From assembly GCA_964599625.1 (NCBI GenBank), contig CAZRGC010000004.1, positions 75,705 to 139,704 of the forward strand: DNA of 64,000 bases. The letters run 5' to 3'. This document shows positions 33,595 to 64,000 of the stretch, in pieces. Within the stretch, counting starts at the first letter, position 1. Each line of letters opens with the position of its first letter. The DNA is from an uncultured Gammaproteobacteria bacterium. Its GTDB lineage: Bacteria > Patescibacteriota > Microgenomatia > UBA8517. The notes under the pieces were generated by a model, which saw nothing but the letters and a program-made list of their open reading frames with translations, was not told the origin of the DNA and ran no database searches. Position numbers and translations under genes: made by a program.

Positions 33595-33601
33595 AAATAA
33601 G

Positions 33602-33636
33602 GTGGATAAAAGTTTGCTAAAGCAAACTGCGTCCAC
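33602..33636 (+). promoter_or_regulatory. nested perfect hairpin (AGTTTGCT-AA-AGCAAACT inside GTGGA...TCCAC) between pilB and pilT
   Basis: The palindrome is seen directly. No downstream T-run, so it is not a canonical intrinsic terminator. Confidence 0.4.
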
Positions 33637-33739
33637 ATTGAAACAAAATGGACATAAGCGCTTAGCCTTCGGCCAAGACAAAGCTTGAGTCCAAAAATGA
33701 ATTTTATGGACATAAGCAAAGCTTGAATCCAATAAAAAT

Positions 33740-34798: not shown

Positions 34799-34799
34799 T

Positions 34800-36008: not shown

Positions 36009-36032
36009 ATCTTTGCAAGTTTGTAAAAGCAC

Positions 36033-36677: not shown

Positions 36678-36678
36678 A

Positions 36679-39147: not shown

Positions 39148-39189
39148 CTTAACTTTTGTTTAAATAACCTTTACAATGAACTTACTGCC

Positions 39190-45849: not shown

Positions 45850-46361
45850 CTTTTTTGAAAATAATTAACAGGTATCTGACTCGAAAACGCCCACCAATCG
45901 TAACTTGTTATTTCTTTAACATTTCTTTCATCTTCCTTGCTTGTTATCACTTGAATATAATCACCCTGTTTCAAAGACTTTTGCCAGTCCTGATAATTCA
46001 TATTAGCATTTTTTGTAATATTCTGTTGTGGGTTTTTCCATCTTTCATCTTTGCACAAACTAAAGCTTGAAAAAACTGTATTTGAATTTGTTTTAAATTT
46101 CTTTAGACCGTCATAATTAAACAGCCATATCGTACTAGTTTTGTTAAAAGTGACTTGTTGAGAATATATACCAGAGTAGACCCCTGATTTTGGAAAGTTT
46201 CTTAACTGTCTTACGGAATTTTCTTTTAATTGCTGATCAAGAGTGTTTATATAAGAAAACGCCTCCCAAATTTTGGTAATGCCGAAGAAAAAAAATATGA
46301 AGCTCCCAATAGACACAAAAATAATGAGGAAAAGACCAATCTTTTGTATAAGTGCTTTCAT
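45843..46361 (-). CDS. membrane-anchored hypothetical protein
   Basis: N-terminal TM LFLIIFVSIGSFIFFFFGI. Confidence 0.5.
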   Translation of the reverse strand: MKALIQKIGLFLIIFVSIGSFIFFFFGITKIWEAFSYINTLDQQLKENSVRQLRNFPKSGVYSGIYSQQVTFNKTSTIWLFNYDGLKKFKTNSNTVFSSFSLCKDERWKNPQQNITKNANMNYQDWQKSLKQGDYIQVITSKEDERNVKEITSYDWWAFSSQIPVNYFQKRC

Positions 46362-46407
46362 TCACATCAATTAAAGCACACCAATATTGAACCTTCAATA
46401 TGCCGAG

Positions 46408-47916: not shown

Positions 47917-47948
47917 TCAAAACATTATAGGACCAATAAATTTAAATG

Positions 47949-49076: not shown

Positions 49077-49127
49077 TTTAAGATTCTAACATTTTGTTTT
49101 ATATCAGATATTAGTTTATTATGAATT

Positions 49128-49592
49128 ATGGATTCTGAAAGTAATTCTGAAAAATACTTGCGTGTGATAATTGTAGTTCTTGTAGCTCTAATACTTTGCG
49201 GAAGTGGTTTTTTTATTACGGTCTACTTCCTTAAGAAAGATAAAGTAAATGTAAGTGAGGCGGCTGTTACAACCGATAGAAAAATCAAAATCGTTGATAA
49301 AACTAGTATTGATAAGATTTATGACTACACCACTTCGAATATACCTTCTGGACAAGAAACAAAAATATATGGAACTTTTGTTTCGGCAGACTTAGAACAA
49401 AGAATCATTGACGGAGAGAAGTATGTTTACGTTATTGGAATAAAAAACGACGATGGAAGTTTAACCAAAGTGCACTTCAAGAGCGATGAATACGAGGCTT
49501 TTGGAGGAACAATTCCAAGAGGAAGTTTTTGGGTTACAATGCCTGTTGTTGTTACCATAAATTCTTTGGGAATCTCTTTAGAGAAAAATTAA
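49128..49592 (+). CDS. small N-terminally anchored protein, paralog of 50769..51209
   Basis: N-terminal TM VIIVVLVALILCGSGFFITVYFL. The C-terminal segment VHFKSDEYEAFGG aligns with IHFTQEEYDYVDP in the paralog. Confidence 0.5.
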   Translation: MDSESNSEKYLRVIIVVLVALILCGSGFFITVYFLKKDKVNVSEAAVTTDRKIKIVDKTSIDKIYDYTTSNIPSGQETKIYGTFVSADLEQRIIDGEKYVYVIGIKNDDGSLTKVHFKSDEYEAFGGTIPRGSFWVTMPVVVTINSLGISLEKN

Positions 49593-49660
49593 TCCTAAAA
49601 ATAAAAAAGTCAGGTACTGTTTTACATACTTTGTTTTTGGTATGAGTTTTTTCCTAGAGA

Positions 49661-50554
49661 TCAAGATTCCTCTTCTTCGATCCCTATACACAAAAACCAA
49701 AACCACATAAAACCGAAGATGATGTAATTAGGAGTAAACAAAAGTATTACGAGTGTTGACAACTGGACAGACTTTATAAAAAAGTTTTCTTGACCAACGG
49801 TTGTTAGATTTTTATAAACCTTAAACATCCATACAACAAAAGGTATTGAGAATATTCCAAGTCCCGAAACAATTTCCAGCAATATGCTATGTGCAAAGCT
49901 AGTAGAACTGCTCACAAGTCCAAAATTTCCCAAACCGACTCCCCAGATATTGTCAAAAAAAACTTTTATACTTTGAAAAAAATAAGGTCTGTTAAAAATA
50001 GTGGTTTTAGAAAGCCCCATAAACAAAAGTATGATAATGCTTAAAAGAGTGAAACCCACTTTCCATTTTGTAAAAATTTTGCTTACTTCCCCGTTTGCCA
50101 AATATAAAAGACCTAAAATTATTCCTAATATGACAGTTCTATTGAAGGATATAACTGCAAATACTAGAGTTATTATTATCAGGTGGGGTTTCACTTTTAC
50201 ACCCTTTTGCGCAACCTCTGTCAGTGCATAAAACCCCCATATTAACCCAAGGTTAAAGTGTATGGTTGGATCGGTTTGGGGAAAAATAAAAAAAGCGAAC
50301 TTGGCTAACTCAATTGGAAAAATAAAGGACAGCAAATACAAACCGGCGTATAGAAATGAAAGATATTTTATTGATTTTGTAATCAAATGAAAACTTTGAT
50401 TGTAGTTATAAAAAAATAAATACCCCAACACACCCAAGTTAAAGTTCAGGGCATATCTTAGGGGGTTGACTGTTTCGTTGATAAAAAATGGAAATAAGTT
50501 GAGTAATGCCGTAAATGTAAGAAGAGAAAAAAAACCCGGTGGTATTGATACCAC
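49661..50554 (-). CDS. Wzy_C-domain polytopic protein, paralog 2
   Basis: IFNRPYFFQSIKVFFDNIWGVGLGNFGLVSSSTSFAHSILLEIVSGLGIFS. Confidence 0.65.
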   Translation of the reverse strand: MVSIPPGFFSLLTFTALLNLFPFFINETVNPLRYALNFNLGVLGYLFFYNYNQSFHLITKSIKYLSFLYAGLYLLSFIFPIELAKFAFFIFPQTDPTIHFNLGLIWGFYALTEVAQKGVKVKPHLIIITLVFAVISFNRTVILGIILGLLYLANGEVSKIFTKWKVGFTLLSIIILLFMGLSKTTIFNRPYFFQSIKVFFDNIWGVGLGNFGLVSSSTSFAHSILLEIVSGLGIFSIPFVVWMFKVYKNLTTVGQENFFIKSVQLSTLVILLFTPNYIIFGFMWFWFLCIGIEEEES

Positions 50555-50768
50555 TTTGTTATTTGAAATATATATCCCAAAGCCAACAAATAAAAAAACA
50601 AATACAAAAGTGAAGACGAAAATGCCATGGTATAGCCGGAAAAAGACAGGAAAAGTGCACCCAAAAAAGATGCAAACATTGTAAATTCCAACAACTGGGT
50701 TAATGTGTTTAAGTGGTTTGTTTTGTTTTTTGTCAATTTAGTCTATTATAAATTATGAGCGCTCTAAA

Positions 50769-51209
50769 ATGGGTGTTGGCATTTTTTATACTGATATTTA
50801 TAAGTCTTTCCGGTTACTACCTATACACAAAAATAAGTACACCAAAACCAACCGTTTCGGCTGTAGTGATGAACCTAGGGAGATTCCCTCTGCTCCACCC
50901 AAATTGACAACAAGTCAGGTGGCCTACCGTGTTGATGACTTTTTTAGTTCTAATTTAAATCCTGGTGAAACTTTTACCATCCAAGGTCAACTTCAAAGTG
51001 CGCAACCCGAGTTGATTAATATAAATGGCATCGATTTTGTTTTTGTGATGGGAGTTGTTAGAACCGATAAAACCATGGTCAGAATTCATTTTACTCAAGA
51101 GGAATATGATTATGTCGATCCTGTCTTACGAGAGGGTGTTTGGACACACCAGAATGTTTCAATCAGTATTACAGAAGGCAACTACGAAATCCGTCACCTT
51201 GGAGAATAA
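50769..51209 (+). CDS. small protein paralogous to 49128..49592
   Basis: Shared ...G(T/I)(F/D)(V/F)...(V/I)HF(K/T)(S/Q)(D/E)EY(E/D)... pattern. The start and anchor are less clear. Confidence 0.45.
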   Translation: MGVGIFYTDIYKSFRLLPIHKNKYTKTNRFGCSDEPREIPSAPPKLTTSQVAYRVDDFFSSNLNPGETFTIQGQLQSAQPELININGIDFVFVMGVVRTDKTMVRIHFTQEEYDYVDPVLREGVWTHQNVSISITEGNYEIRHLGE

Positions 51210-52264
51210 TCTTCATTTTCTTCCAGGCCTATGCTTATGAACCAAAGCCACATGAAGCCTATTACTATGTAGTTTGGTGTAAACATTAAAATAAACAGAA
51301 TTGATAGTTGGACCGACTTAATAAAGATTTTCTCTTGGTTCGCAGAAATCAAGTTTTTATAAACAGCCACAATCCAGACTATAAATGGCAGTGAAAACAC
51401 CCCCAATGCCGAAATCATCTCTAAAAGTATGTTGTGAGCAAAATTAGTTGAATTACTAACCAGAGCAAACCTGCCTATTCCAGTCCCCAGCGGATACTTG
51501 GATAAACCAACAATCGACTCTAAAAAGTATGGCCTAGAAAAAAGTATTGATTTAAATGATCCGAAAACCAGAAAAAAAAGCGATAAGCTGATTAAAATAT
51601 ATGGAAAATATTTATTAAGTGTTTTTGTTTTTGACATGTAAAATAGATACAGAATTGACGTGACTACAGACAGCACTGCAGACCTGGAGAAAGAAACGCC
51701 AATAAAAAAAATTCCAACAACTGTTATTGCTAGTTTAGTTAGGTTTAATCCATGTCTATATCCGAATATTGTTGCTACAACAACGACTGCCCACAGATCA
51801 CCGACATTGCTATGTTTAATGGTGTCGGTCGGAGGAGCGAAGAGTGTTGAAAGACTTGGCAAGTCAAAAGTTACGAATTGAGAAATAAAATACATCCCCC
51901 CCATAAGTAAACCTAGGGCAACAAGCAAGTTGCTGTAGAAATTCCTAAATACCTCGTTAAAATTACTAGCCAGCAGTATGAAAACAATACCTGAAAAGTA
52001 GATGTAAAAATAGTAAAAATCACCCTTTGTGGTCAATGTGTGAATTCCTGCAACCAAAATAAATACAAGATAAATCCAAAAAGAGTTTTGTATTTTTACC
52101 TTACCTTCAATTAAGATTTTGATTCCCAAAAGAATCGTGCCAATGATGATTCCCGAAAACAAGACAATTTCTCTGAAGATACCAAAAGAACCAAGCATTA
52201 TCAAAACAGAAACTATTATAAATGTCAGGCCATCAAACGTTTTCATTTGGAGCGTTCTTGTCAT
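51194..52264 (-). CDS. Wzy_C-domain polytopic protein, paralog 3
   Basis: LFSRPYFLESIVGLSKYPLGTGIGRFALVSNSTNFAHNILLEMISALGVFSLPF. Confidence 0.7.
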   Translation of the reverse strand: MTRTLQMKTFDGLTFIIVSVLIMLGSFGIFREIVLFSGIIIGTILLGIKILIEGKVKIQNSFWIYLVFILVAGIHTLTTKGDFYYFYIYFSGIVFILLASNFNEVFRNFYSNLLVALGLLMGGMYFISQFVTFDLPSLSTLFAPPTDTIKHSNVGDLWAVVVVATIFGYRHGLNLTKLAITVVGIFFIGVSFSRSAVLSVVTSILYLFYMSKTKTLNKYFPYILISLSLFFLVFGSFKSILFSRPYFLESIVGLSKYPLGTGIGRFALVSNSTNFAHNILLEMISALGVFSLPFIVWIVAVYKNLISANQEKIFIKSVQLSILFILMFTPNYIVIGFMWLWFISIGLEENEDYSPR

Positions 52265-52275
52265 CCTAACTTAGT

Positions 52276-53226
52276 TTACCTTAATTTTTTATACCAGTCC
52301 CAAGCCCTGTAGATCCCCTTATGCAGCTGCGTTTTTGGTTTGTACCCAATTGTTCTTGCGGCAAGTCCAATGTCTGCATAGGAGTCTTTAATATCACCTA
52401 TTCTTTGCGGTCTTTGCTCAACATCGAGTTTTGTTTTTGTGACTTTTTCAATCAAATCTTTGACTTGTAACAAGTTAAGGTTTTTACTACTACCAATGTT
52501 CAAAGCAATACCCCTTAGCGGTTTTTTGCAAATCATGGCTTTATAATTGGCATCGACAACGTCATCTACAAAGCAAAAATCCCTTGTTTGAGTTCCATCA
52601 CCTTCCAAATATCCTGATTTACTCTTCTTTGACAAAGTGTCTAGCCAGGCCGATATGACTGTGGAATATGGGGAGTCACCAAACTGCCCAGGTCCGTAAA
52701 CAGAAAAATATCTTAGTGATACTGTGTCCAAACCATATATATTTGAATATATCTTGCAATACTTTTCGGAAGTGTATTTTTGCAAAGCATATGGAGAGGT
52801 AAAATCTTTGCCCGCTTCGTCTTCGGGTGTGGGTATACTCTTTGTGTTTCCATAGACCGATGAAGATGAAGAATAAATAAATCTTTTGACTCCGTATTTT
52901 TTGGATTTATCTAAAAGATTTATTGTTCCATTTATATTAACGGACGCAGTAATTACCGGCTCCTTAATTGAAAATGAAACTCTTGGCAATGCTGCAAAAT
53001 GGAACACATATTCTGGTTTGTGTTTTTTAAAAATATAATCAGTTTTTCTGGAATCCAAAATTGAGGCCTTGTAAAAGATTGATTTTGGGTTGACTGAAGT
53101 TTTTTTTCCTGTTGATAAATCGTCTATGCCTACAACCGTTGCTGAAGGATTTTTTTTAATAAAATAATTTACAAAATTACTGCCGATAAATCCTGCCGAT
53201 CCTGTGACCAAAATACGTTTAGGCAT
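52276..53226 (-). CDS. NAD-dependent epimerase/dehydratase (UDP-sugar epimerase/decarboxylase-like SDR)
   Basis: ILVTGSAGFIGSNFV Rossmann motif, with YALQK (Y-x3-K). Confidence 0.85.
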   Translation of the reverse strand: MPKRILVTGSAGFIGSNFVNYFIKKNPSATVVGIDDLSTGKKTSVNPKSIFYKASILDSRKTDYIFKKHKPEYVFHFAALPRVSFSIKEPVITASVNINGTINLLDKSKKYGVKRFIYSSSSSVYGNTKSIPTPEDEAGKDFTSPYALQKYTSEKYCKIYSNIYGLDTVSLRYFSVYGPGQFGDSPYSTVISAWLDTLSKKSKSGYLEGDGTQTRDFCFVDDVVDANYKAMICKKPLRGIALNIGSSKNLNLLQVKDLIEKVTKTKLDVEQRPQRIGDIKDSYADIGLAARTIGYKPKTQLHKGIYRAWDWYKKLR

Positions 53227-53282
53227 TTTTATTTTTTGATTATATCAGAACCTAATAATCCCCTATCTGGTAAACTAATGTA

Positions 53283-54095
53283 ATGAAACTTAAAAAGCAT
53301 TTTCTAGTATATTTTCTGATTTTTTTATTTGTTATTTTGACCTCAGAAATATTTTATTCTTTTAAAAACCGGACTCTTTTTTTGGAAAGAATTTTTTTTC
53401 AGCTGGTTTACTCAAACACACGTTTTGAGGACACGCTCATTAAAGTTGTACCAGATTTGTATACAAAGTCATATCTTAGTTACCTAAAAGACATAACTTT
53501 AGAAGAAACAGCATATGGGTGTAAGCCCTTGTGTGTTTCTTATGTTGAATCTCTCAATTTGCTTAAGACTTTCCAAAAAATCGAAAACACTAAGATTTTT
53601 GAATTAACCGACTTGCAATCAAAATCCGAATATTATTACTTGATGGCAACAGCCGCTGTCAGAGTCGATTTTCATACCGCAAGCATATATCTAGATAAGT
53701 CGTTGGAATATTTTCCTCAAAATTCAAAATCGTTAAAGTTTAAAAATCAAATTAATACAATTTTTCAGATATTTCACGATTTAAACGCCAGAAATGATGT
53801 AGATGTGTGGTTGCAAGCAAATCCTGAAACACTTATGCAGTTCGAGAGAGATTACTTAGCTTTTGCCGCAAATGAATTGGGTGGTTTATATGACGTTGGT
53901 TCACTAAAATCTTTAAACTATTTCGAAATTGCAGTTAATTTGAACCCTTGGAATGAAGAATATTACATGGATTTGTACAACGCTTACAAGGTCAAAAAAG
54001 ACCAAGGTGTTTTAACGGTTCTTGAAAAGTGCATAGAAAAATTAGGATCTGATGCCGGGCGTTGTTTATCGGAAAAAAATACTCTCAAACGTTGA
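53283..54095 (+). CDS. membrane-anchored hypothetical protein (possible helical-repeat/TPR-like)
   Basis: N-terminal TM LVYFLIFLFVILTSEIFY. The rest is helical-looking with no catalytic motif. Confidence 0.45.
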   Translation: MKLKKHFLVYFLIFLFVILTSEIFYSFKNRTLFLERIFFQLVYSNTRFEDTLIKVVPDLYTKSYLSYLKDITLEETAYGCKPLCVSYVESLNLLKTFQKIENTKIFELTDLQSKSEYYYLMATAAVRVDFHTASIYLDKSLEYFPQNSKSLKFKNQINTIFQIFHDLNARNDVDVWLQANPETLMQFERDYLAFAANELGGLYDVGSLKSLNYFEIAVNLNPWNEEYYMDLYNAYKVKKDQGVLTVLEKCIEKLGSDAGRCLSEKNTLKR

Positions 54096-54809
54096 TCTAA
54101 AATACTCTTTAATAAATATTAAATTCGCTAAAGTATATCTTTTGAAAAGTCTATTGGGTTCTTGAAAAAACCTAAAAACCCATTCCAAATACATTTTACG
54201 TATTATTAGCGGAGCTCTCCTTTTTGTGCCGGCAATATAATGGAAAACTCCCCCAACTCCCATATACAAAGCGTTCGGAAGACTTTTCAAATTCTTTTGG
54301 ATCCAATACTCCTGGTATGGCACTCCCATTCCAACAAAAACCAAATTCGGTTTTTTTCTATTCAAATCACTTAATAAATTTAAATTTTGTTTTTTGCTGG
54401 GAAAACCATTATGAAAACCGGATATATTAATTTTCGGATAACGTTTTCTTATAGCTCCTACAGTTTTTTCGATAACTGGCTGTTCACACCCAATTAGATA
54501 AATTTTTAAATGATGTTTTGATATTTGTTTTAGTAAATCAAAAATAAAATCTCCCACGTTCAACCTTGAATCTAATTTTTGTGGAAGATGAAGTGAGGCA
54601 AGAACTGGTCCCCAGCCATCGGGGTAAATTATTTTAGATGTGTTGATTATCTTGCGATACCTTTTATTTTTAAGATAAGTAACAACACCATAGGCATTCA
54701 TATTGCTTATCAATGTTTTACTATTTTTCTTTGAGTAGAAAATAATTTTATCAAAGAGCTCTTCTTTATCAATTCTGTTAAACGGTACCTTGCCAAATAT
54801 TTTAATCAT
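54066..54809 (-). CDS. tagA: WecB/TagA/CpsF-family (GT26) glycosyltransferase
   Basis: KIYLIGCEQPVIEKTVGAIRKRYPKINISGFHNGF...PNLVFVGMGVPYQEYWI matches the TagA/WecG core. Confidence 0.8.
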   Translation of the reverse strand: MIKIFGKVPFNRIDKEELFDKIIFYSKKNSKTLISNMNAYGVVTYLKNKRYRKIINTSKIIYPDGWGPVLASLHLPQKLDSRLNVGDFIFDLLKQISKHHLKIYLIGCEQPVIEKTVGAIRKRYPKINISGFHNGFPSKKQNLNLLSDLNRKKPNLVFVGMGVPYQEYWIQKNLKSLPNALYMGVGGVFHYIAGTKRRAPLIIRKMYLEWVFRFFQEPNRLFKRYTLANLIFIKEYFRSTFESIFFR

Positions 54810-55929
54810 TTAAAATTTTTGCTGAATACATGCGTATATTTTTGACAAAGACTTCACTCGAAAACTTTTTGGAATAATTCCATATGTATTTGTAACTAAA
54901 CTTGGTTTGTGAAAATTTAATGAGTGCTTTTTGCAATGCCGCTTCGGATAAATCGTAAAAGAATATGCCAGTCTTGCCAGGAATGATTGTCTCTTTGTGA
55001 CCTCCGGAATAATATGCTATAGAAGGCTTGCCATATCCTGCCGCTTCTGCAATTGTCATCCCAAAGTCCTCGTCTGAAGTTGCGACGATAAGTGCCTTGG
55101 ATTTTTTGTAAATGTTATTAAGATGTGAGTCATTAACCTCACCCAAAAATTCAATATTATTCGCCCCAAAAGCCAGTTTTTGTAGTCTCCTTTTTTCTTT
55201 GCCTCCCCCGACTATTTTTAGATTCAAATCGGTATTTTTGAATGTTTTTATTATTAGATCGACATTTTTATATTTAACAAGTCTGCTAACTACCAAAAAA
55301 TAATCACCTCTTTCGTAGGGTTTTTTTTGTGCTGGGCATGGTGGATTGATTACCACTGAGCCTCGTTTGTAAATGTTTTTGATTCTTTTGGAAACGTTTT
55401 TTGAGTTTGCAATAAATAAGTCAACTTTTTCATTGCTTTTTTTGTCAAATACTTCTAGATAAGTGTTCACAATATTCAAAATAAAACCAAACGCTTTTGT
55501 TTCCAACCCAGATTCTGTTGACAACCCGTAAATAAATCTGGGAGGTGTATGGCAGTAGCATATATGTTTTGTTTTGTCTGAAATTGGAATTGATTTAGAT
55601 ATGTTTGAACCAGATGAAGATATAACCAAATCAAATTTCTTTGTGTCAAAGAATCTCCACACCAAAGGCAGAATAGGTCTATACAAAAGCGGGTATCTGC
55701 GGAGTAATGGAATATTTTGAACCCATGATGTTATGATGTTCGCTGTTTTAAAATTATCCATGAAGCTACCCATTCTTTGGTAGTCAATTGAAGCTACAAA
55801 TATAGGTGCGGAAGGAAATGTCTTGTGAAGTTCCTTAAGAACCCTTTCACCTCCTCCAAATGTTCTCAGGTAATCATGGGCAATAGCTACTCTTTTATTT
55901 TTTAATATTGTGTATGAAGTCGAGCTCAT
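54802..55929 (-). CDS. glycosyltransferase family 4
   Basis: C-terminal ...ATSDEDFGMTIAEAAGYGKPSIAY (GT4 E-x7-E region). Confidence 0.75.
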   Translation of the reverse strand: MSSTSYTILKNKRVAIAHDYLRTFGGGERVLKELHKTFPSAPIFVASIDYQRMGSFMDNFKTANIITSWVQNIPLLRRYPLLYRPILPLVWRFFDTKKFDLVISSSGSNISKSIPISDKTKHICYCHTPPRFIYGLSTESGLETKAFGFILNIVNTYLEVFDKKSNEKVDLFIANSKNVSKRIKNIYKRGSVVINPPCPAQKKPYERGDYFLVVSRLVKYKNVDLIIKTFKNTDLNLKIVGGGKEKRRLQKLAFGANNIEFLGEVNDSHLNNIYKKSKALIVATSDEDFGMTIAEAAGYGKPSIAYYSGGHKETIIPGKTGIFFYDLSEAALQKALIKFSQTKFSYKYIWNYSKKFSSEVFVKNIRMYSAKILND

Positions 55930-55937
55930 AAAAACAC

Positions 55938-57950
55938 TTAGAAAAGATTTTCTCCTTGCATGCCGTCAGGTTTTTCAAGACCGGCAGTCACAAGAATTGA
56001 TGGGGCAACATCAATAATGTTGGGATTGTCTTTTTTAATTTCTTTGTTGGATAAAATTACACCCGGGACCAGCGACGCGTCTATTAGATGATCACCGCTC
56101 CATTTACTGTGCCTTTTTAAAATTATATTCTTTGGGGTTGATCCGACTGCAGTGTCCCAAGATGCCCTGATTCCCGATGCGTACCCCAAAATTAAATCTG
56201 GAGCGTTGGGGTCGGTGATATTTAAATCTTTTTTGTCGTACAAACGTTTAAAAATAAACTTTCCTGTAAAAGGGTTTTTGTATTTTAATAAAGATTTTTT
56301 TAGGTTATCCAAAATCTGCGCTTCTTCTGACTCACTAACTGTGCCGCGACTTTCTCTGGTCTTTTTATTTAAATAAAGACTGTTATAACCAACTGCATAA
56401 GCATTTGTTTTTTCCCAGTTAACTCCTTCAAGCATTTCTCCACCTGAAGCCAAACCATTTTCCAGAGATAAAAAACCGTTATTTGCCAACCAAGAGTTGA
56501 GATTGAATTCATAGTCAAATTCTGTAAATCCATGGTCCGATAAAACAATAACAGTATCGCTCTCAGTAACATACTCGTTTAAAATTTTACCCAAAAGACT
56601 ATCCATTTTTACGTAATAGTCTAATATCGTATTTTTATATGGTGACTTTTTGTCGTTTCGGTATCTCCAAAACATATGCTGGATTGTGTCCGTCATGCCA
56701 AGATAACCCACAAATACACCTTTCTTTTGCTTGTCCAAAGTGTCAAACAAAATACGGGACCTTTCGTCAATCGTTTGATCAACCTGTTTTAAAAACGCTT
56801 CTTCGTCTAATATGTCTTCTTCCAGTGCCCAAGTATCGTGCGGCAGTCCTAGTGTCGAGAATGTTCCATTCTCTTTTGCAACTTGAGAAGAGAAATTTTT
56901 TGGAAAAGATATGTCAAAGACTGGTCTTTCCGGGTCGATGTTGATTGGACTCAAATATAATTCAAGATCTGGGTTTTGTGATTTAAGGTAGAACATTCCA
57001 ACCCCATGGATTTTTGTAAAAAAATCCAACTTGAACTCAAATTTTATCCAAGGCGACCACTCGCCTTCTTTGAGTTTAAATTTTTGATTTTGAACATCTA
57101 CTTCAATAAAACCGTCTTTAGCGTTTCGCTTTACATCGACTTTCAAGTTTGAGGTTTTGGTTTCTGTGAGACCGTTGTATTTTGGACCCGGGACAGTAAC
57201 TGTAATTTTTTCTGAGTTAGTGACTGGTACAATATTCCCTCTCCAGTTGTCGGTTTTTGAAACTTTTTTAGACGTAATTAGGGTAAATGTCCCCTCCGTT
57301 CCTGTGATATCTGGGGTGCCCATTCCCGAGAGCATTGATCCGGCAAGCTTTTGAGAAGGGTAGGTGTCTGGTAAAAACAACACATTAACAGGAATGTTGC
57401 TCTTGGAGAGATATTCCCAAAACTTTGGAATGCTCAGGAATTTTTTTTCTTTAGAGAAGACGAGAGACGGTTCGTATGTTTCTTGGTCACGTACAATAAA
57501 GTCGTATATGTGGTGTTCGCTTGGGTTTGTTCCAGTTATAAAACTTGCCCAGGCAACCGGGGACTGAGGGGGCGTAGTTGTTTGTAATTTTTTATAGCTT
57601 CCCGTTGATTTGAGTTTGGCGAAGTTGGGTAGCTTGTTTGCTTTTATTCCCTCGTCAATGATTTTGGGATCCATGCCGTCAAAACCCAAGACAACAACCT
57701 TCTTGTTTAAGTTATTTGAATCGTTATTTTTGGATTTTTGCATATTAAAAATGAAAATAAATATAACAACTAAGATAATAACAAATAAAACGAGATTTCG
57801 TTTTCTAAAAAATTTACCGGCAAGTAGTACAAGTGGACTTGCAATGGCCATTATATATCCCAATAGAGTTGAAATGGCGGTTCCATATACTACTCCACTC
57901 CCCGGGTCGAGGTATGTTAACACTCCTAGTTGTAAGTTTTTGTTAGACAT
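55938..57950 (-). CDS. membrane-anchored nucleotide pyrophosphatase/phosphodiesterase-family enzyme (alkaline-phosphatase superfamily, Thr nucleophile)
   Basis: VVLGFDGMDPKII...TTTPPQSPVAWASFITG (NPP GxDG + T-nucleophile motif), and VLSDHGFTEF (metal site). Confidence 0.75.
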   Translation of the reverse strand: MSNKNLQLGVLTYLDPGSGVVYGTAISTLLGYIMAIASPLVLLAGKFFRKRNLVLFVIILVVIFIFIFNMQKSKNNDSNNLNKKVVVLGFDGMDPKIIDEGIKANKLPNFAKLKSTGSYKKLQTTTPPQSPVAWASFITGTNPSEHHIYDFIVRDQETYEPSLVFSKEKKFLSIPKFWEYLSKSNIPVNVLFLPDTYPSQKLAGSMLSGMGTPDITGTEGTFTLITSKKVSKTDNWRGNIVPVTNSEKITVTVPGPKYNGLTETKTSNLKVDVKRNAKDGFIEVDVQNQKFKLKEGEWSPWIKFEFKLDFFTKIHGVGMFYLKSQNPDLELYLSPINIDPERPVFDISFPKNFSSQVAKENGTFSTLGLPHDTWALEEDILDEEAFLKQVDQTIDERSRILFDTLDKQKKGVFVGYLGMTDTIQHMFWRYRNDKKSPYKNTILDYYVKMDSLLGKILNEYVTESDTVIVLSDHGFTEFDYEFNLNSWLANNGFLSLENGLASGGEMLEGVNWEKTNAYAVGYNSLYLNKKTRESRGTVSESEEAQILDNLKKSLLKYKNPFTGKFIFKRLYDKKDLNITDPNAPDLILGYASGIRASWDTAVGSTPKNIILKRHSKWSGDHLIDASLVPGVILSNKEIKKDNPNIIDVAPSILVTAGLEKPDGMQGENLF

Positions 57951-57997
57951 AATAGATAGACCAAGTTATACACACGTATTATAATTTAAAACTGTTA

Positions 57998-58690
57998 TTG
58001 TTTGATTACATGATTAACAAAACACTCGACAAAAAAGTAGAGTTTGCAAAAAATATAATTGACAAGGCTTCCAACAGATTCAATTTGGATAAAACGGTTG
58101 TAGCTTGGACGGGTGGTAAAGATTCAACGGTGGTTTTACATTTGATAAGGCAAATGTATGGTTCGGTAAAGTTCCCTGTTATGTTTAACGACTCAACCCT
58201 TGAGTTTCCTGAAATTTACGAATTTATCGAAAAGATTTCCAGGAGCTGGAACCTGGAGCTTGTAATTGAACGCCATGACTCAAGCCTTTTAGCAAAATAT
58301 GAAGCATCTAAATCAAAATCCGAAAAATTCATGCTTTTAAGGGAAATGAAAATAAAAGCCCTTAAAGATTTTCAGTCCAGGAATTCGATAGAGGCATATA
58401 TTGTGGGAATACGATGGGATGAACATCCTTCAAGATCCAGAGAAAAGTTTTTTTCTACAAGGGAAAACCACACCAGGGTGCATCCGATATTGGATTTTAC
58501 AGAAAAAGATATTTGGGACTATATACACAAATTTGATGTGCCGTATGTGAATCTTTACGATCAGGGCTACAGGTCACTTGGAGAAAAACCGCTGACTAAA
58601 AAGGCTTTGCCAGGTGAAGGTGAGAGATCCGGTAGAGAAAGGAAAAAGGAAGACAAAATGTCCAAACTTCGAAATATGGGTTATTGGTAA
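57998..58690 (+). CDS. PAPS-reductase-family PP-loop protein
   Basis: VVAWTGGKDSTVVLHL is the SGGxDS-type PP-loop. Confidence 0.75.
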   Translation: MFDYMINKTLDKKVEFAKNIIDKASNRFNLDKTVVAWTGGKDSTVVLHLIRQMYGSVKFPVMFNDSTLEFPEIYEFIEKISRSWNLELVIERHDSSLLAKYEASKSKSEKFMLLREMKIKALKDFQSRNSIEAYIVGIRWDEHPSRSREKFFSTRENHTRVHPILDFTEKDIWDYIHKFDVPYVNLYDQGYRSLGEKPLTKKALPGEGERSGRERKKEDKMSKLRNMGYW

Positions 58691-60193
58691 TTAGTAACCC
58701 AGGCTTTTTAGTTTTTCCAATTCCTCTGCTTCATCTTCCGGTCTCAAGTGCGACTTTGGTAACTCATACTGGTCAAACTTGTCATAAAGCATAGTTTTCA
58801 GATCAAAGTGAACGCGGCCTTTTTCGTAAAGCAGATTAGTTTTTTCTTCCGGGTCCAACTTAATATTAAAAAGCTCCTCGTTTCGGGCCGAATCGTAGCA
58901 ATTTTCTTTGTCTGCATAAAATATATATTTATAGTCACCTTTTATAACTGCGTAGTTCTGAAAAGCCTCAAAAAAAGCCGTCTTCCTTTTACCTTGGAAA
59001 ATATTTGTAAATGTAGTCTTTATAAACTTGTCAAACGGAACGCTGTCTAGGTAGGTTTTATCAATATTCAGCCCCAAAAGGTTTGTTAATGTAGAGATAA
59101 CGTCAGTATTAAGGACCATCTGAGAAACATTGCTCCCTTTACTTTTTGGATGTTTTACAATCAAAGGTATTTTAATGTGGCTTTGGTATGCGGTTCCTCC
59201 GTGAGTGTAGAAATAGTCATGATCAAACCCTTCACCGTGATCACCATAGAAAAGCACGATTGTATTCTTATCTAACCCCAAATCTTTGAGGGCCATAAAA
59301 ATTTTCCCCATTTGTTCATCGTCGGCTTTTATCTCGCCATCATATAGTGAACTATAAACATCCAAATTTGGGGGTGGAGTTTCTGGATTGCAGCCTTTCA
59401 ATACTGTTTTTTGCGGTTGAGCTTGGGTAACGTAATTCAGTCGTTCTTTTTCCCATTGTTCGTAGCTTTTTGAATCTATCTTTTTGCAAACAGGTGAATT
59501 TTCCAGACATCTGTATTTATATTTGGGGGAATAGGGTCCGTGTGGATCCGCGAGATGTACCCACAAAAAGAACTTCTGTTTACCGGCACCTTTTAACCAA
59601 CTGATTGCATCGTTAACAAGTGTCTCATGGTCTTGGTCAGAGCTGCTCCAGGATGGGTAAGATCTGTAATTGCGAAAATCGTTACTGAAGTTTTTGGCAC
59701 TTGGTGAAAGCACGCTGTTTGCAACGAATGCTGCAGTTTTGTACCCATGTCTTGTTAAAACCTCGGGAATTGTGAGTGTCCTGGGACTTAGAAAAAAACT
59801 TTCGTTGGAGATGATCCTGGTTTGGTATGGGTGCTTTCCTGTAAACAAGGCCGTAAAAGAAGGAACTGTTAATGGGGACACTGTGTAGGCATTATTGAAC
59901 ACAGTCGCATCTTTAGACCATTCGTCAATATTGGGTGTTGTTCCTCCTTGATAGCCATAAACACCCATACGGTCTTGTCTAAGTGTGTCTACTGACAGGA
60001 TTATCACGTTGTATCCGTTTCCATCCTTATTCTTAAAAAATCTTGTATAAATATAAGAAACCAAAAAGCCGACTAAAAAAATACTTGCAAAAAGCAAAGA
60101 CCATTTAACAAAAGGATTTTTATAAATTTTGAAGAATGACTTGACCAAGTGTTGCTTCATATTCAAAAAAACATAAGATTGAGTATACTTCAA
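58691..60193 (-). CDS. sulfatase-fold (alkaline-phosphatase superfamily) membrane-anchored enzyme, LtaS/phosphotransferase-like rather than a true sulfatase
   Basis: N-terminal TM, NVIILSVDTLRQDRMG..., and the nucleophile region TVPSFTALFTG (Thr where sulfatases have C/S, Phe where they have Arg). Confidence 0.7.
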   Translation of the reverse strand: MKYTQSYVFLNMKQHLVKSFFKIYKNPFVKWSLLFASIFLVGFLVSYIYTRFFKNKDGNGYNVIILSVDTLRQDRMGVYGYQGGTTPNIDEWSKDATVFNNAYTVSPLTVPSFTALFTGKHPYQTRIISNESFFLSPRTLTIPEVLTRHGYKTAAFVANSVLSPSAKNFSNDFRNYRSYPSWSSSDQDHETLVNDAISWLKGAGKQKFFLWVHLADPHGPYSPKYKYRCLENSPVCKKIDSKSYEQWEKERLNYVTQAQPQKTVLKGCNPETPPPNLDVYSSLYDGEIKADDEQMGKIFMALKDLGLDKNTIVLFYGDHGEGFDHDYFYTHGGTAYQSHIKIPLIVKHPKSKGSNVSQMVLNTDVISTLTNLLGLNIDKTYLDSVPFDKFIKTTFTNIFQGKRKTAFFEAFQNYAVIKGDYKYIFYADKENCYDSARNEELFNIKLDPEEKTNLLYEKGRVHFDLKTMLYDKFDQYELPKSHLRPEDEAEELEKLKSLGY

Positions 60194-60204
60194 TTATAAA
60201 TTTA

Positions 60205-61365
60205 ATGAAAACTGACAAAATATTATTGTTATCAAATATAGAACCTGGTGGCGCATGGATTTTTACTGAAAGATTTATTACGAAATATGTTTCTGATAAC
60301 GAACCATTTTCCGTTAGGATTATATCTGCCCCACCAACAACAATCTGTAAATTAAAGTCTCACATAAACATAGTAAAAGCTCCGCCGTCTTCCCCGCCGT
60401 TTAGTTTTGTTAAAAGTTTTTTTGGTTTTTTATATATGACATATTTAGCAATAAAACATATTTCTAAAGATTTTAATCCCGACTTGGTAATTTCTACAGA
60501 TTACAGATTCTCAATCGTTGCTTCCATTTTCTTTTTCCGTAGAGCCAAAGTTGTATTTTGGTTTCACGGTTCACAAAGTGTTTTGTATAACAACGTTTTT
60601 CAACTGGATAGGAGACAAATTTTAATTAAGATATTTGAAAGACTAGCCCTTTTGCTTTCACCTCTAACAGTTGTCCCAAGTGTATATGCAAAAAGCTTTG
60701 TGTACAGAAGATTAGGCCTTTTTGCTTCCATGAAAAACGTAAAAGTTGTCGAAAATTTTGTACCTGACTTCATAGATGGGACTAAAAAATATAGTAAATC
60801 TAAATTGAGAACTTTGTTAAAGCTGAATTTAAATGACAACATTGTTTTGTACTCCGGAAGAATCAGCCTTTACAAAGGTTTGGAGGGCCTAGTTAGCTAT
60901 TTTAATCGAGTTGATAACAAAAAAATAAAGTTGGTTGTTGCAGCGCCAACAAACAATCAGAATATTAGACTGGTAAAATTGCTTAAGGAGTCGAAAAAAA
61001 TAATACTTTTTGAAAATCTGTCACCCGAAAAATTATATTTTTTGTACCAGGCCTCAGACTTGTTGATTCTTCCATCGGAGCAAGAAATGGCTCCCTTGTC
61101 GGTTATCGAAGCTGCGGCTTCCGGATTGAGTGTGGCGGGAACCAACACGGGTAATATTTCGGACTTGGTTCACAAGATTGACCCAAATCTAATACTAAAA
61201 AATACAAGCACAGTGGAAATAGGCAGAGTTGTTGCTTATTATTTTTCGCTAAAAATGAATAAGAGACAAAAAATATCTGCCGAATTTGAAAAGGAAGGTA
61301 AAAAACAAACATTCACCAAGAGTCTTAATATGTTTAAGAAGGCACTGCGAAGCTATAAGTTATAA
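60205..61365 (+). CDS. glycosyltransferase family 4
   Basis: C-terminal PSEQEMAPLSVIEAAASGLSV (GT4 E-x7-E). Confidence 0.7.
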   Translation: MKTDKILLLSNIEPGGAWIFTERFITKYVSDNEPFSVRIISAPPTTICKLKSHINIVKAPPSSPPFSFVKSFFGFLYMTYLAIKHISKDFNPDLVISTDYRFSIVASIFFFRRAKVVFWFHGSQSVLYNNVFQLDRRQILIKIFERLALLLSPLTVVPSVYAKSFVYRRLGLFASMKNVKVVENFVPDFIDGTKKYSKSKLRTLLKLNLNDNIVLYSGRISLYKGLEGLVSYFNRVDNKKIKLVVAAPTNNQNIRLVKLLKESKKIILFENLSPEKLYFLYQASDLLILPSEQEMAPLSVIEAAASGLSVAGTNTGNISDLVHKIDPNLILKNTSTVEIGRVVAYYFSLKMNKRQKISAEFEKEGKKQTFTKSLNMFKKALRSYKL

Positions 61366-62228
61366 TACCTCTCGGGCACTCGGGGAATTTTTTTATTACC
61401 AAAAATTGAAGTTATTTGCGTTTTATAAGCTAAAATTGACTTCTCTTTGGCTGCAAAATCCGAAGATTTGGGATACAAAATAATGTCTGCACTCGGAATA
61501 TCTTTTTTGGAATATTGATTGTATGGAAAGTCAGACCAGAGCAAGACCTCGTCGTACATTTCTGTTGCAATACTTCTTACTAAAATGTGGTCTACATGAC
61601 CACCCTCACCAAAGGGCGCAAAAACAATTGCGTTTTTTGTTGTGTTTGTTATTTTTTTCAATTTATTTTTAATTTTTGATTTTAGCTCAAGGTCGTAATT
61701 GGACACTCGTCCCGAAAACTGTATATCAGTGGAGCGATAAATCGGCTTATTTTTTTTGTCTAATCTCCAGGCGGCATCAATAAAATTCAAATGAATAGGT
61801 TTAAATCCAAGTATTTTGGAAGCAGACCTGTCTTCAAGTTTTCGTTGATAGAAAAGTTTTTTACCATCAGTGGCGCCGCATTGCTCCAAAAAAAGATTGG
61901 CTTGTGGGGTACTGGGACTATTATTGCAGTCCGAGAACACGGTTATCACACTTACTTGTTTATTTAATTTTCTGAGCTTGGCAAGGATAAGCCCACAGGA
62001 AAAAACTGCATCATCCAGGTGTGGTGACAAAAAAACAAATGACTGATATCTTTCTAGGATGTCCGAAAGATTTTTACTAAAATAGTCACTTTTGAGCAAG
62101 TAACGAATAGAAATCATGTTCTTTAAGTATGTCAGACTTCGGCAGGTTCCGGAAGCTAATTTTAGAGTTTGACAAAATTTCAAAAAGATTTGAATTTTCA
62201 TAAACAAAAATATTTTTAAATCCCCCAC
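61353..62228 (-). CDS. PIG-L/LmbE-family N-acetylglucosaminyl deacetylase
   Basis: FLSPHLDDAVFSCG (P-H-x-DD motif) and HVDH. Confidence 0.75.
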   Translation of the reverse strand: MGDLKIFLFMKIQIFLKFCQTLKLASGTCRSLTYLKNMISIRYLLKSDYFSKNLSDILERYQSFVFLSPHLDDAVFSCGLILAKLRKLNKQVSVITVFSDCNNSPSTPQANLFLEQCGATDGKKLFYQRKLEDRSASKILGFKPIHLNFIDAAWRLDKKNKPIYRSTDIQFSGRVSNYDLELKSKIKNKLKKITNTTKNAIVFAPFGEGGHVDHILVRSIATEMYDEVLLWSDFPYNQYSKKDIPSADIILYPKSSDFAAKEKSILAYKTQITSIFGNKKIPRVPERYYNL

Positions 62229-63015
62229 TCCTTAGACCATTCCTGAAAACGTATTCAGGTGTACCAAAAAAACCTTTGAAACGAGTTTTTGAGGCGTTTA
62301 TCGTATGGATTATCATTATTTTGCCGGTTTTGCGAATTAGCCGGACCCCTTCTTTTATGAATGGTTGCTTGTTTTTTATATCATGCAGGCAGTCACAAGC
62401 TATGATATTCTCCAGAGATCTTGTTGCAAACGGCAGCCCGTCGTTGGCATCTGCACAAACTAATACAGTTTTATTGTCCGAGAAAAAATATTTTGATATA
62501 TACAGGCTGAGCATGGAATTGTCCAATGCATAAATTTTTGATTTCCCAACCGAAGTCCGTATAAAGGGCAATAGCTGACCCACTCCGCTTCCGAAATCGA
62601 GCACGCTGCCATTTGTAAGGAGGCGGACGCATTTTTTACCCAAATTGAATGATAAATCGCCATGCCTTCTCAGAAGATAATTAACCCAACTCTTTGGATA
62701 CCCAAAAATTGTTAAAGTTTGCATTGATATTTTAAATCCTAAAAACCTCCAAAGTCCCATCTTCGAAAACAACAATACTGGTATCGAAAGTTTTGGGTGA
62801 AGGTCTAACAACTTTAACAAGGCAAAAATGTTGTTGCCGTTTTCTAATAGTTCTACCGCCTCCTTTGCTTTTTTATCTTTTATTAAATATAAAATCCCGT
62901 CGACAGCCGGATATTTAAAACACTTACAATTGTAAATATCGGTGCCAGTATTTTTTTTGAGCTTGGAGTTGCAAAATTTGCAAATAAAAACCGTATCGTT
63001 ATTTTTGGTTTTCAC
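62086..63015 (-). CDS. class I SAM methyltransferase with N-terminal Zn-ribbon
   Basis: CKFCNS...CKC Zn ribbon, then VLDFGSGVGQ motif I. It overlaps the 3' end of the PIG-L gene by 143 nt, so the start of one of them is probably mis-set. Confidence 0.65.
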   Translation of the reverse strand: MKTKNNDTVFICKFCNSKLKKNTGTDIYNCKCFKYPAVDGILYLIKDKKAKEAVELLENGNNIFALLKLLDLHPKLSIPVLLFSKMGLWRFLGFKISMQTLTIFGYPKSWVNYLLRRHGDLSFNLGKKCVRLLTNGSVLDFGSGVGQLLPFIRTSVGKSKIYALDNSMLSLYISKYFFSDNKTVLVCADANDGLPFATRSLENIIACDCLHDIKNKQPFIKEGVRLIRKTGKIMIIHTINASKTRFKGFFGTPEYVFRNGLRSGGFKNIFVYENSNLFEILSNSKISFRNLPKSDILKEHDFYSLLAQK

Positions 63016-63835
63016 TTTCGGTTATTTTGGTTACTACCGGGCCAACATAAATCTTGGAAGTGCTTAAAGGTATGCTTTGACCTATCAGGATGGGTATATC
63101 GTCGAACAAGTAATATTTATTATTTATCATTGTTGCATTTATCTTAAGTGTCAAAAAAATGTCTTTCAACAACGGATTGAACCTTGTTAACACCTCCCCT
63201 TGAGAAGTTGTCACAACTTTTTTGGCAGGTAATGTACGTTTGGCTACTATTGTCATAACAGGGTTCCCCTCGCTGTCGTTGATTGTGTCGCCCACATTTA
63301 ATGCGTCCGCGATATAGTCTCTGGTTCCCGTTGTTTCCAAGAATGTCGAGTCTATCATAATTTGTGTTTCGACCATCAGTTCTTTTTTCACTCTCCTGTC
63401 CGGGATCTTGTCGATATTTGTAATTATTCCTTCCGTGTTAATGTAGTCTAGTTGGAGCTTGATAGGATAACCGACGAGGAGGGGTTTACCCTTGTATGAA
63501 TATTGCATTGTAGATTTTGTATACAACGCGTGAACTTTCATTGTAAGGTAAACAGCTTGTTTGTTTTTGTCTGAGTCGTATCTAAAAACTTTTGTAACCT
63601 CAACCTGAGGCTTACCCGCACCATCCCGTTCAGTCATCCCAACCGTAAAGAGTTGTGCAAACCAGTCTCTAGACCCAGGTCTCATGAATGAAACGTCGTC
63701 TTCGCCGATCTTAACGGTTATGTTGACATATTCGGGTCTTCTCAAAAATGTAACAGCAAAAAACAAAACCCCTACAAAAAAAAGGGCCACAAGCAAGTAA
63801 TCAAAAACTGTAAGTTTCTTAAGTTTGTCTCTCAT
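62999..63835 (-). CDS. membrane-anchored hypothetical protein
   Basis: N-terminal TM LLVALFFVGVLFFAVTFL, followed by an extracytoplasmic domain. Confidence 0.5.
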   Translation of the reverse strand: MRDKLKKLTVFDYLLVALFFVGVLFFAVTFLRRPEYVNITVKIGEDDVSFMRPGSRDWFAQLFTVGMTERDGAGKPQVEVTKVFRYDSDKNKQAVYLTMKVHALYTKSTMQYSYKGKPLLVGYPIKLQLDYINTEGIITNIDKIPDRRVKKELMVETQIMIDSTFLETTGTRDYIADALNVGDTINDSEGNPVMTIVAKRTLPAKKVVTTSQGEVLTRFNPLLKDIFLTLKINATMINNKYYLFDDIPILIGQSIPLSTSKIYVGPVVTKITESENQK

Positions 63836-64000
63836 TCAAAAAACCCAGGAAAAGCATTAAATATATTTCTCCGCTAATAACTGAGAAAATACTCACAATT
63901 CCAAAGGAAAACATTATACCTATTAAACTTAGAAGTGGCATCTCTGAGTTTTTTAGGCCTTTGGTCTTGAGTTTGTTTTTCAATATCCCGGCGACTGATA
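63819..64000 (-). CDS. partial CDS (C-terminal ~59 codons of a membrane protein continuing beyond the window end)
   Basis: Open minus-strand frame to the window edge ending …LIGIMFSFGIVSIFSVISGEIYLMLFLGFLNERQT*. A second frame is also open for 41 codons, so the frame is uncertain. Confidence 0.25.
   Translation of the reverse strand, partial: SVAGILKNKLKTKGLKNSEMPLLSLIGIMFSFGIVSIFSVISGEIYLMLFLGFLNERQT

Follow-up and report, generated by a model that had tools for sequence, protein, structure and literature searches.

Part of an envelope-glycan locus of Patescibacteria (Microgenomates) is encoded on a 64,000-nucleotide stretch of contig CAZRGC010000004.1 (assembly GCA_964599625.1, positions 75,705 to 139,704; lineage Patescibacteriota, Microgenomatia, UBA8517), referred to here as the window. 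Three of its genes encode a small PP-loop protein of the PAPS_reduct family and two enzymes of the alkaline phosphatase (AlkP) superfamily, one NPP-like and one sulfatase-like. This trio is almost certainly a real functional unit, and is called the module below. The PP-loop protein is, to judge from its sequence, probably an adenylyltransferase and not a reductase. We tentatively favour a reading, held with somewhat less than even confidence, in which CysD-like activation of an oxyanion, most likely sulfate, is coupled to the AlkP-type enzymes, which would use a Ser or Thr nucleophile either to transfer the activated group to an envelope glycan or to process the nucleotide by-product. Each component belongs to a known superfamily, and the module is uncharacterized. 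No description of the pairing, of the fusions or of their function was found in the literature searched.

The five open reading frames (ORFs) of the original prediction were recovered at their positions, and each matches the named Pfam family far above its gathering score. The NPP-like gene (55938-57950, minus strand; PF01663, 3.5e-38) encodes a COG3379-like protein of 670 residues. It is followed on the same strand by a GT4 glycosyltransferase gene of glycan-assembly context (54802-55929; PF00534 at 2e-28, with PF13439) and by a GT26 gene of the WecG/TagA/CpsF glycosyltransferase superfamily (54066-54809; PF03808, 2e-50). An 8-nucleotide gap separates the first two genes and an 8-nucleotide overlap joins the second and third. 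These three look co-transcribed, because they are tightly packed on one strand. The PP-loop gene (58010-58690, plus strand; PF01507, 6e-39) is divergent from the NPP-like gene, with 59 nucleotides between them. Its ORF opens with a TTG at 57998, and public gene calls place the start at the ATG at 58010, giving a cysteine-free, CysD-like protein of 226 residues. The PP-loop and sulfatase-like genes are convergent and their stop codons abut. The sulfatase-like gene (58691-60193, minus strand; PF00884, 6e-45) encodes an S1-sulfatase fold with the motif TVPSF; by the public gene calls, its likely start is 11 codons inside the ORF (489 residues).

Conservation of the module was assessed in the four related loci looked up first, in 80 loci from metagenomes and in seven further contexts. 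ORFs were called, searched with iterated local hidden Markov models (HMMs) and counted. The iterated models were needed, as tblastn alone missed divergent AlkP-type neighbours. The PP-loop protein is 50-62% identical across many lineages, which is unusual for a gene of a glycan locus. Names such as Candidatus Gottesmanbacteria, Levybacteria, Roizmanbacteria, Daviesbacteria and 'Patescibacteria group bacterium' are attached to homologues of the PP-loop and NPP-like proteins, which places the window in a CPR bacterium of the Microgenomates. The PP-loop gene of the first four loci (identity 56-62%) invariably has beside it a Phosphodiest gene, in most cases divergent, and either one or two Sulfatase genes. 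The flanks of these loci vary (nucleotide-salvage genes, rho, glycan genes), and GT26 is not a constant companion. Among all loci with a PP-loop identity of at least 43% (43-62%; the close group), an AlkP-superfamily gene lies within 1.5 kb or is fused in 40 of the 42 that are informative. Where at least 1.5 kb is available on both sides, an AlkP-type gene is near or fused in 28 of 30. In a distant group (32-39%), 13 of 22 have such a gene at this distance or fused. A count of Pfam families in the two genes on each side gave, for the close group, Phosphodiest 34, Sulfatase 19, GT2 8, PMT_2 5, methyltransferases 4, ABC 3, ABC-2 3, GT1 3, carbamoyltransferase 2, and Sat and APS kinase 2. For the distant group it gave Phosphodiest 11, arylsulfotransferase 8, ATP-sulfurylase 3 and Sulfatase 3. 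Synteny of the AlkP-type genes is thus conserved, usually in envelope-glycan loci, and the tie first proposed between these genes and the glycan locus stands: they are no stray phosphatases. The PP-loop gene had been described as wedged between them; it is instead the constant core of the unit, in many cases forming a fusion protein with an AlkP-type domain.

The fusions take several forms. In three loci (L016, L023 and L014), an N-terminal Sulfatase domain and a C-terminal PAPS_reduct domain form a single polypeptide without a membrane segment, and in L048 a short AlkP-like domain is fused to PAPS_reduct. With the L016 fusion as query, a database search recovered no fewer than 32 distinct 90% clusters of Sulfatase and PAPS_reduct fusions in Patescibacteria, annotated as 'hypothetical' or as 'sulfatase-like hydrolase/transferase'. 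When 1.8 billion representatives were searched exhaustively with the PP-loop profile, 176 clusters were obtained at E<=1e-30. Among the 150 best-scoring PP-loop 50% representatives, about 25 are fusions. They include NPP-like (COG3379-type) domains joined to the PP-loop domain (P0362, P0363 and P0366), sulfatase-like domains joined to it (P0365 and P0369-P0372), a G domain joined to it (P0393), and an AlkP-like domain, a G domain and the PP-loop domain in one protein (P0416). The G domain of P0393 is of EF-1alpha/CysN type, and the C-terminal half of this protein best matches CysD. The nearest other families in the same search are canonical CysD, CysC-CysD and CysH-CysD proteins.

The identity of the PP-loop protein is central to any account of the module. 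Pfam and NCBIfam names and the source annotations read 'phosphoadenosine phosphosulfate reductase'. Public annotation, with some surveys of the candidate phyla radiation (CPR), would make this gene a genuine assimilatory reductase (cysH) of 3'-phosphoadenosine-5'-phosphosulfate (PAPS) or adenosine-5'-phosphosulfate (APS). The sequence contradicts this, and the assignment is hardly credible. A C-terminal Cys (in ECGLH) is the catalytic nucleophile of CysH and APS reductase. No Cys is conserved among 38 aligned PP-loop orthologues, and the ECGLH tail is found in none of about 85 homologues, all of which end ER.GR..(D)KE..M..LR..GY[WFM]. The protein therefore cannot be a PAPS/APS reductase. It also misses the cut-off of the CysH equivalog model NF002537 (100.7 bits against 154). 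Residues invariant in the 38 orthologues include GGKDST, FND, IRxDEH, GY.S.GE and ER.GR..KE..M..LR..GYW. Within the TGGKDST loop, G35, K37, D38 and T40 are invariant, and the loop aligns with SIGKDS of CysD (1zun). It is of the ATP-pyrophosphatase type and not of the degenerate type of CysH, where the counterpart reads SSFGIQAAV. Such a loop fits an enzyme that binds ATP and releases pyrophosphate. Of the original description as a PAPS-reductase-family PP-loop gene, the family (PF01507) holds and the reductase does not.

Relationship to CysD is indicated by profile comparisons. The best NCBIfam match is the CysD subfamily model NF003587, at 111 bits against a cut-off of 195; TIGR02039 (CysD) gives 89 bits against 397. 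A profile of the family, compared with the Protein Data Bank (PDB), places CysD 1zun first at 104.7 bits, by 19 bits, ahead of CysH (85.6), human flavin adenine dinucleotide (FAD) synthase, FADS (85.4), and the yeast and Candida flavin mononucleotide (FMN) adenylyltransferases, FMNAT (33-37). CysD, the small, catalytic subunit of the GTP-regulated ATP sulfurylase CysDN, shares with the PP-loop protein the PAPS_reduct/adenine-nucleotide alpha-hydrolase fold and the xGKDS PP-loop. The two also have in common a C-terminal ER.GR...M..(K/L)(K/R)..GY(F/W/M), a match based on E. coli CysD together with the canonical CysD sequences P0435, P0464 and P0484. Some distant members of the family, and only these, are fused to a CysN/EF-1alpha-type G domain. 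Differences from CysD are also clear. The PP-loop protein is about 100 residues shorter, and 1zun matches it in two stretches split by an insertion; it stays below the NCBIfam cut-offs; its partner is an AlkP-superfamily enzyme and not a GTPase; and in the CPR clade the LGC.P motif of CysD is replaced by Glu and Lys/Pro. One branch of the family, distant and probably non-CPR, has 270-285 residues and a PAWEQD insertion. Two canonical CysD-like representatives, P0491 and P0497, contain large inserts within or next to conserved CysD motifs that look, by eye, like inteins, with a Cys straight after the break and an HN-type end.

Structural comparison brings in a different candidate. The AlphaFold2 (AF2) model of the PP-loop protein (pLDDT 89) matches CysH and APS reductases in Foldseek at TM 0.7-0.8, and its top match there is human FAD synthase. 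The PAPS-reductase domain of that enzyme is also the top match of a single-sequence PDB search (1.7e-17). By analogy, the PP-loop protein could be a eukaryote-type FMN adenylyltransferase, with the AlkP-type partners acting as FAD pyrophosphatase and FMN phosphatase in flavin salvage. Human FAD synthase is itself a synthase domain fused to a hydrolase domain, and NPP enzymes hydrolyse dinucleotides. The family profile, however, prefers CysD to human FADS and to the fungal enzymes by the scores given above. Neither a riboflavin kinase nor a flavin transporter is among the recurrent neighbours, and links to Sat, APS kinase and CysN-type domains would go unexplained. The profile search and the census of neighbours led us to abandon flavin salvage, which is very improbable.

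The NPP-like protein has the core of the NPP/PhnA branch of the AlkP superfamily (ENPP1, Xac NPP, phosphonoacetate hydrolase), including its conserved bimetal ligand set. Its AF2 model (pLDDT 90.5) matches the PhnA/ENPP core in Foldseek at TMt 0.62-0.68. It differs from that branch in having only 10-14% identity, a Ser and not a Thr nucleophile, a beta-sandwich insertion and an N-terminal hairpin. The insertion is beta-rich, comprises about 115 residues and lies at about 220-335. The nucleophile had been assigned to a Thr of TTTPPQSP. Alignment to the psfTnpn motif of PhnA, in which we take Thr64 to be the nucleophile, points instead to Ser130, in PPQ-S-PVAW. Close orthologues have Ser at position 130, and distant ones have either Ser or Thr. 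D91, S130, D421, H425, D472, H473 and H621 are conserved, and all but the Ser presumably correspond to the NPP-type metal ligands. The N-terminus of the window protein has two hydrophobic segments, forming a two-helix hairpin around a loop with 4 Lys/Arg. Orthologues of the window type have such a hairpin, with 4-6 Lys/Arg in the loop; other orthologues are without it. In most of the related loci, the NPP-like gene is a direct neighbour of the PP-loop gene.

The best PDB relatives of the sulfatase-like protein are S1 sulfatases (4e-20). As originally proposed, the Thr of TVPSF occupies the nucleophile position: it aligns on the formylglycine Cys/Ser of solved S1 sulfatases. In the same alignment, Phe replaces the Arg of CxPxR, and the Lys of a 'wrk' motif of the matched sulfatase aligns on Gly. 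The nucleophile position holds Thr in 30 of 31 module-associated homologues and Ser in the remaining one, and none has CxPxR. Within the first 120 residues there is a single hydrophobic segment (28-46), and the N-terminus is Lys-rich, as in some of the homologues. Homologues encoded directly downstream of the PP-loop gene, or fused to it, have no membrane segment. The protein had been called LtaS/EptA-like. The PF00884 fold, the Thr nucleophile and membrane anchoring are indeed common to LtaS, EptA/MCR-1 and OpgB. LtaS and EptA, however, are expected to have a multi-pass N-terminal membrane domain, and the single segment of the window protein means that their architecture is not shared; in the module these proteins have one membrane segment or none, and are closest to S1 sulfatases. 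Matches to EptA, CptA and LtaS are weak (E 1e-6 to 1e-10 for EptA and LtaS), far below the NCBIfam cut-offs: EptA 39 bits against 561, LtaS 26 against 970. A further difference is that module proteins are coupled or fused to an ATP-dependent PP-loop enzyme; we know of no such coupling or fusion for LtaS or EptA. Topology was judged from hydrophobicity and the positive-inside rule, which suggests that the catalytic domains of the NPP-like and sulfatase-like proteins of the window face outward.

These proteins were originally read, with the GT26 and GT4 genes, as a teichoic-acid-like, polyol-phosphate toolkit. Here GT26 would make a linkage unit, the AlkP-type enzymes would install phospho-substituents as LtaS, EptA and OpgB do, and the PP-loop protein would make an ADP-linked phospho-donor, much as FMN adenylyltransferase makes FAD. 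Several observations fit. GT26 is present, and recurs next to a fusion gene in L092 and L093; Ser/Thr nucleophiles and the loss of sulfate-specific residues suit phosphoryl better than sulfuryl transfer; weak matches to EptA, CptA and LtaS exist; and an outward-facing, anchored topology, as predicted in the window, is that of known lipid-donor phosphotransferases. A CDP-OH_P_transf gene occurs at 17047-17799, and in L091 an FGGY kinase and two NTP_transferase genes belong to the module operon. The pathway itself is what is missing from the Pfam-scanned ORFs of the window. Glyphos_transf (PF04464; TagB/TagF, TarK/L), TagD/TarI, TarJ, TagO/WecA and TagGH were not found among them, nor was any CTP_transf_like, NTP_transf_3 or ADH-type match. 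The CDP-alcohol phosphotransferase, which had been cited in support, is a weak match (6e-8) in a separate operon 37 kb away.

The GT26 protein resembles TagA at the level of the superfamily. It exceeds the cut-off of the superfamily model TIGR00696 (141.5 bits against 69), and membership of this superfamily is what it shares with TagA/TarA. It falls short of both equivalogs, at 140.9 bits against 350 for TarA (NF041710) and 118 against 323 for WecG, and no other teichoic acid gene is nearby. GT26 stands beside other module genes in 2 of about 50 related loci, being absent from some 95% of module loci; none was detected by ORF calling and local HMMs in the 80 metagenome loci. The two cases are genes 34% (L092) and 31% (L093) identical to the window GT26, just upstream of sulfatase-PP-loop fusions. 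The window GT4 has no fixed position beside the PP-loop gene, though GT4 genes are common in module loci. The window GT26 and GT4 are ordinary glycan-assembly genes, and their grouping with the trio is not more than chance, unlike the grouping of the three module genes with one another. With the LtaS and EptA scores far under their cut-offs and the multi-pass domain missing, and with Sat, APS-kinase and arylsulfotransferase neighbours and CysD/CysN-type fusions left unexplained, a teichoic-acid-like pathway is improbable. What survives of the earlier interpretation are the family assignments, the Thr of the sulfatase-like protein and the link to a glycan locus; the teichoic acid, the wedged PP-loop gene and the likeness to LtaS and EptA do not. 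The neighbouring Sat and APS-kinase genes and the affinity to CysD point to sulfate rather than polyol-phosphate, and an ester-type modification of a surface glycan is plausible.

Glycan genes of the module loci comprise Wzy_C, GT2, GT4, PMT_2, ABC-2, RGP, Bac_transf and, at times, GT26. L091 has a flippase of the Wzx type together with GT4 genes, DegT, PMT_2 and a methyltransferase. L092 and L093 have Bac_transf, RGP, Wzy_C and, immediately upstream, GT26. L094 has GT2, Wzy_C and a carbamoyltransferase, and L096 has GT4, an epimerase and Wzy_C, while the order in L095 is ABC-2/ABC, PP-loop, Sulfatase and two GT4 genes. Sulfate-activation genes occur in some of the loci. The PP-loop gene directly adjoins a Sat-CysC fusion in L025 and Sat in L018; Sat is also present in L050, L063 and L071, and an APS-kinase-like gene in L090 and L093. 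ASST-type arylsulfotransferase genes were found in 10 loci. No Sulfotransfer-family gene is among the listed recurrent neighbours. To our knowledge, CPR bacteria have neither sulfite reductase nor cysteine synthesis from sulfate; APS or PAPS in these organisms would serve sulfation. The APS-kinase-like protein of L090 (5215-5997) and L093 (12365-13156) has 260 residues and an additional CTP_transf_like match, and is 76% identical between the two loci, the first with an unfused and the second with a fused module.

A comparable arrangement has been described: dedicated copies of cysD, cysN and cysC in capsule loci are reported to be a hallmark of sulfated polysaccharide synthesis, as in Vibrio sp. 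KMM 8419 (PMC11641403). Those loci resemble the module in placing a sulfate-activation-type gene inside a surface-glycan locus. They differ in that the module has Ser/Thr AlkP-type enzymes in place of sulfotransferases, and an APS kinase in few of its loci.

Genomic context also raises the question of whether the module breaks down external compounds. Outward-facing AlkP enzymes might degrade nucleotides, phosphodiesters or sulfate esters outside the cell, in the service of a host-dependent lifestyle, and a cytoplasmic CysD-like enzyme might re-activate a released product; the position in glycan loci would then be incidental. Both AlkP-type proteins of the window are predicted to face outward. 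In L004 the trio lies among nucleotide-salvage genes (adenosine deaminase, IMP dehydrogenase, purine nucleoside phosphorylase, a phosphoribosyltransferase and dCMP deaminase), and the flanks of L007 are non-glycan. In the distant group, the PP-loop gene is found together with ASST, Sat, a TctA transporter and regulators of the GntR or ROK type, a setting that looks catabolic. Scavenging is nevertheless decidedly unlikely for the module as a whole. Many of the AlkP-type partners have no membrane segment or are fused to an ATP-dependent domain, and hence are cytoplasmic. Glycan loci, in which the gene lies within a glycan operon, make up the majority of the close group, and in the window the NPP-like gene is packed into one unit with GT4 and GT26. 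Two gene orders are examples from the distant branch (loci L063:6251-12081, L050, L078 and L071). One runs TctA transporter, GntR regulator, ASST-like beta-propeller, PP-loop protein and ATP sulfurylase; the alternative runs ROK regulator, sulfatase-like protein with Thr, PP-loop protein and ASST-like protein. Such operons look like ones that handle a sulfated substrate.

The favoured mechanism, sulfate activation coupled to Ser/Thr-dependent transfer, would proceed as follows. (i) GT26 and GT4 would build the glycan. (ii) The PP-loop protein would adenylylate an oxyanion with ATP, releasing pyrophosphate; the likeliest substrate is sulfate, which would yield APS. (iii) Where an APS kinase is present, APS may be converted to PAPS. 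(iv) The NPP/PhnA-like and sulfatase-fold proteins would take up the activated group as a covalent Ser/Thr ester and pass it to the glycan or to a lipid-linked glycan. Alternatively, the AlkP-type enzymes may act on the nucleotide by-product. The predicted product is a sulfated, or phospho-ester-decorated, surface glycan and not a polyol-phosphate teichoic acid. That sulfate is the substrate of the PP-loop protein is a proposal to which we give not quite an even chance, and that the group, once activated, is passed to the glycan by the AlkP-type enzymes is more doubtful. The most specific version, in which the CysD-like domain makes APS without a GTPase and the Thr of the adjacent or fused sulfatase-fold enzyme binds the sulfuryl group as a Thr-sulfate ester and hands it to the glycan or lipid-linked acceptor, is unlikely. 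If it were true, a sulfatase would be run in reverse, separately from the classical PAPS sulfotransferase fold, and Patescibacteria envelopes would be sulfated. Other roles were considered. Nothing in the data favoured the PP-loop protein as a maturase of the AlkP-type nucleophile, or an analogy to type 4 BREX, in which BrxP with its PAPS-reductase domain is paired with PglZ. A pyrophosphatase role for the AlkP-type partner and a PAP-phosphatase role were likewise favoured by none of the data.

A number of points weigh against sulfate activation and transfer. Single-sequence and fold comparisons of the PP-loop protein fail to separate CysD, CysH, APS reductase and FAD synthase. Canonical CysN is not present, and no GTPase gene was found in the window ORFs scanned. 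Only 7 of about 75 loci have Sat or APS-kinase genes in the vicinity of the module, and the 64-kb window has none; where Sat adjoins, a second ATP sulfurylase would be redundant. The sulfatase-like protein is without at least two residues that are expected to bind sulfate in S1 sulfatases. A GKWH-type Lys/His motif was not found in its sequence on inspection without alignment. The site that remains resembles a generic single-metal Thr phosphotransferase site. Catalytic domains that face outward could make no direct use of a cytoplasmic nucleotide-activated donor; orthologues that are fused or free of membrane segments show cytoplasmic coupling in other loci and not in the window. Finally, sulfate as the substrate, the direction of the reaction, the AlkP-type enzymes as the transferases and the acceptor are all inferred.

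Patescibacteria represent a large part of bacterial diversity. They are believed to live attached to host cells, so that their surface chemistry is central to their biology. The module is among the better-conserved features of envelope loci across Microgenomates and related groups. It marks a chemical activity that these cells need, since the PP-loop protein is conserved and the fusions fall into dozens of independent clusters. If the module sulfates glycans, it would explain why 'cysH', Sat and CysC are kept in organisms without sulfate assimilation, and would define a class of sulfotransferase that uses the sulfatase fold. The module is widespread in a major and poorly understood lineage, and may point to a new route to glycan esters. 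Natural fusions such as P0143 from Candidatus Daviesbacteria are ready-made constructs for biochemistry. A CPR survey counts cysH/aprA as sulfate-to-sulfite capacity (PMC11608272). Counting PP-loop 'cysH' genes of the present kind as sulfate-reduction capacity is unsafe, because they have no catalytic cysteine.

Other genes of the same glycan locus surround the trio. A second GT4 gene (60205-61365, plus strand; PF00534, 7e-20) is divergent from the sulfatase-like gene. Beyond it, a DUF4330 protein (62999-63835, minus strand; PF14221, 4e-11) may be another protein that recurs with the module. In L092 and L094 its homologues are found 2-3 kb away from the fusion genes, and in L093 and L094 faint matches adjoin Wzy_C. 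On the other side, a 270-residue ORF without a Pfam match (53283-54095, plus strand), which public assemblies annotate as a gene, is convergent with GT26, with a 30-nucleotide overlap of the 3' ends. Two paralogous multi-pass membrane proteins (49661-50554 and 51194-52264, both minus strand), also without a Pfam match, have near-identical C-terminal ends (SVQLS.L.IL.FTPNYI..GFMW.WF..IG.EE) and occupy the place that Wzy_C polymerase/ligase genes have in related loci. The G+C content of this second glycan locus (about 46000-64000) is 0.34-0.39, against 0.40-0.46 over most of the window.

The remainder of the window contains gyrA, gyrB, a type IV pilus operon, sortases, a RelA/SpoT-like gene and a first glycan operon. 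The last is headed by a 1522-residue protein with two GT2 domains and one GT4 domain (21821-26389, minus strand), and further comprises an epimerase, GT4, a DegT aminotransferase, GT2, the weak CDP-OH_P_transf match and a polysaccharide deacetylase. Two proteins of 500 residues in this operon (13121-16262) have no Pfam match. G+C content dips similarly there, to 0.32-0.38 at 16-22 kb. An inorganic pyrophosphatase gene (26561-27037, minus strand) could pull a pyrophosphate-releasing adenylyl transfer. The type IV pilus-like operon (31837-42181, plus strand) is complete, with PilB-type and PilT-type ATPases, a PilC-type platform protein, a prepilin peptidase and a series of pilins or pseudopilins, at least four in number, with the N-methyl motif. 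It is followed by a gene for a 620-residue HD/RelA-SpoT/TGS protein (42178-44040, minus strand), whose synthetase domain is matched only weakly. At the opposite end, a candidate S-adenosylmethionine (SAM) riboswitch (30-124, minus strand; RF00162), scoring 44.4 bits, exactly the gathering score, points left to a gene beyond the edge of the window.

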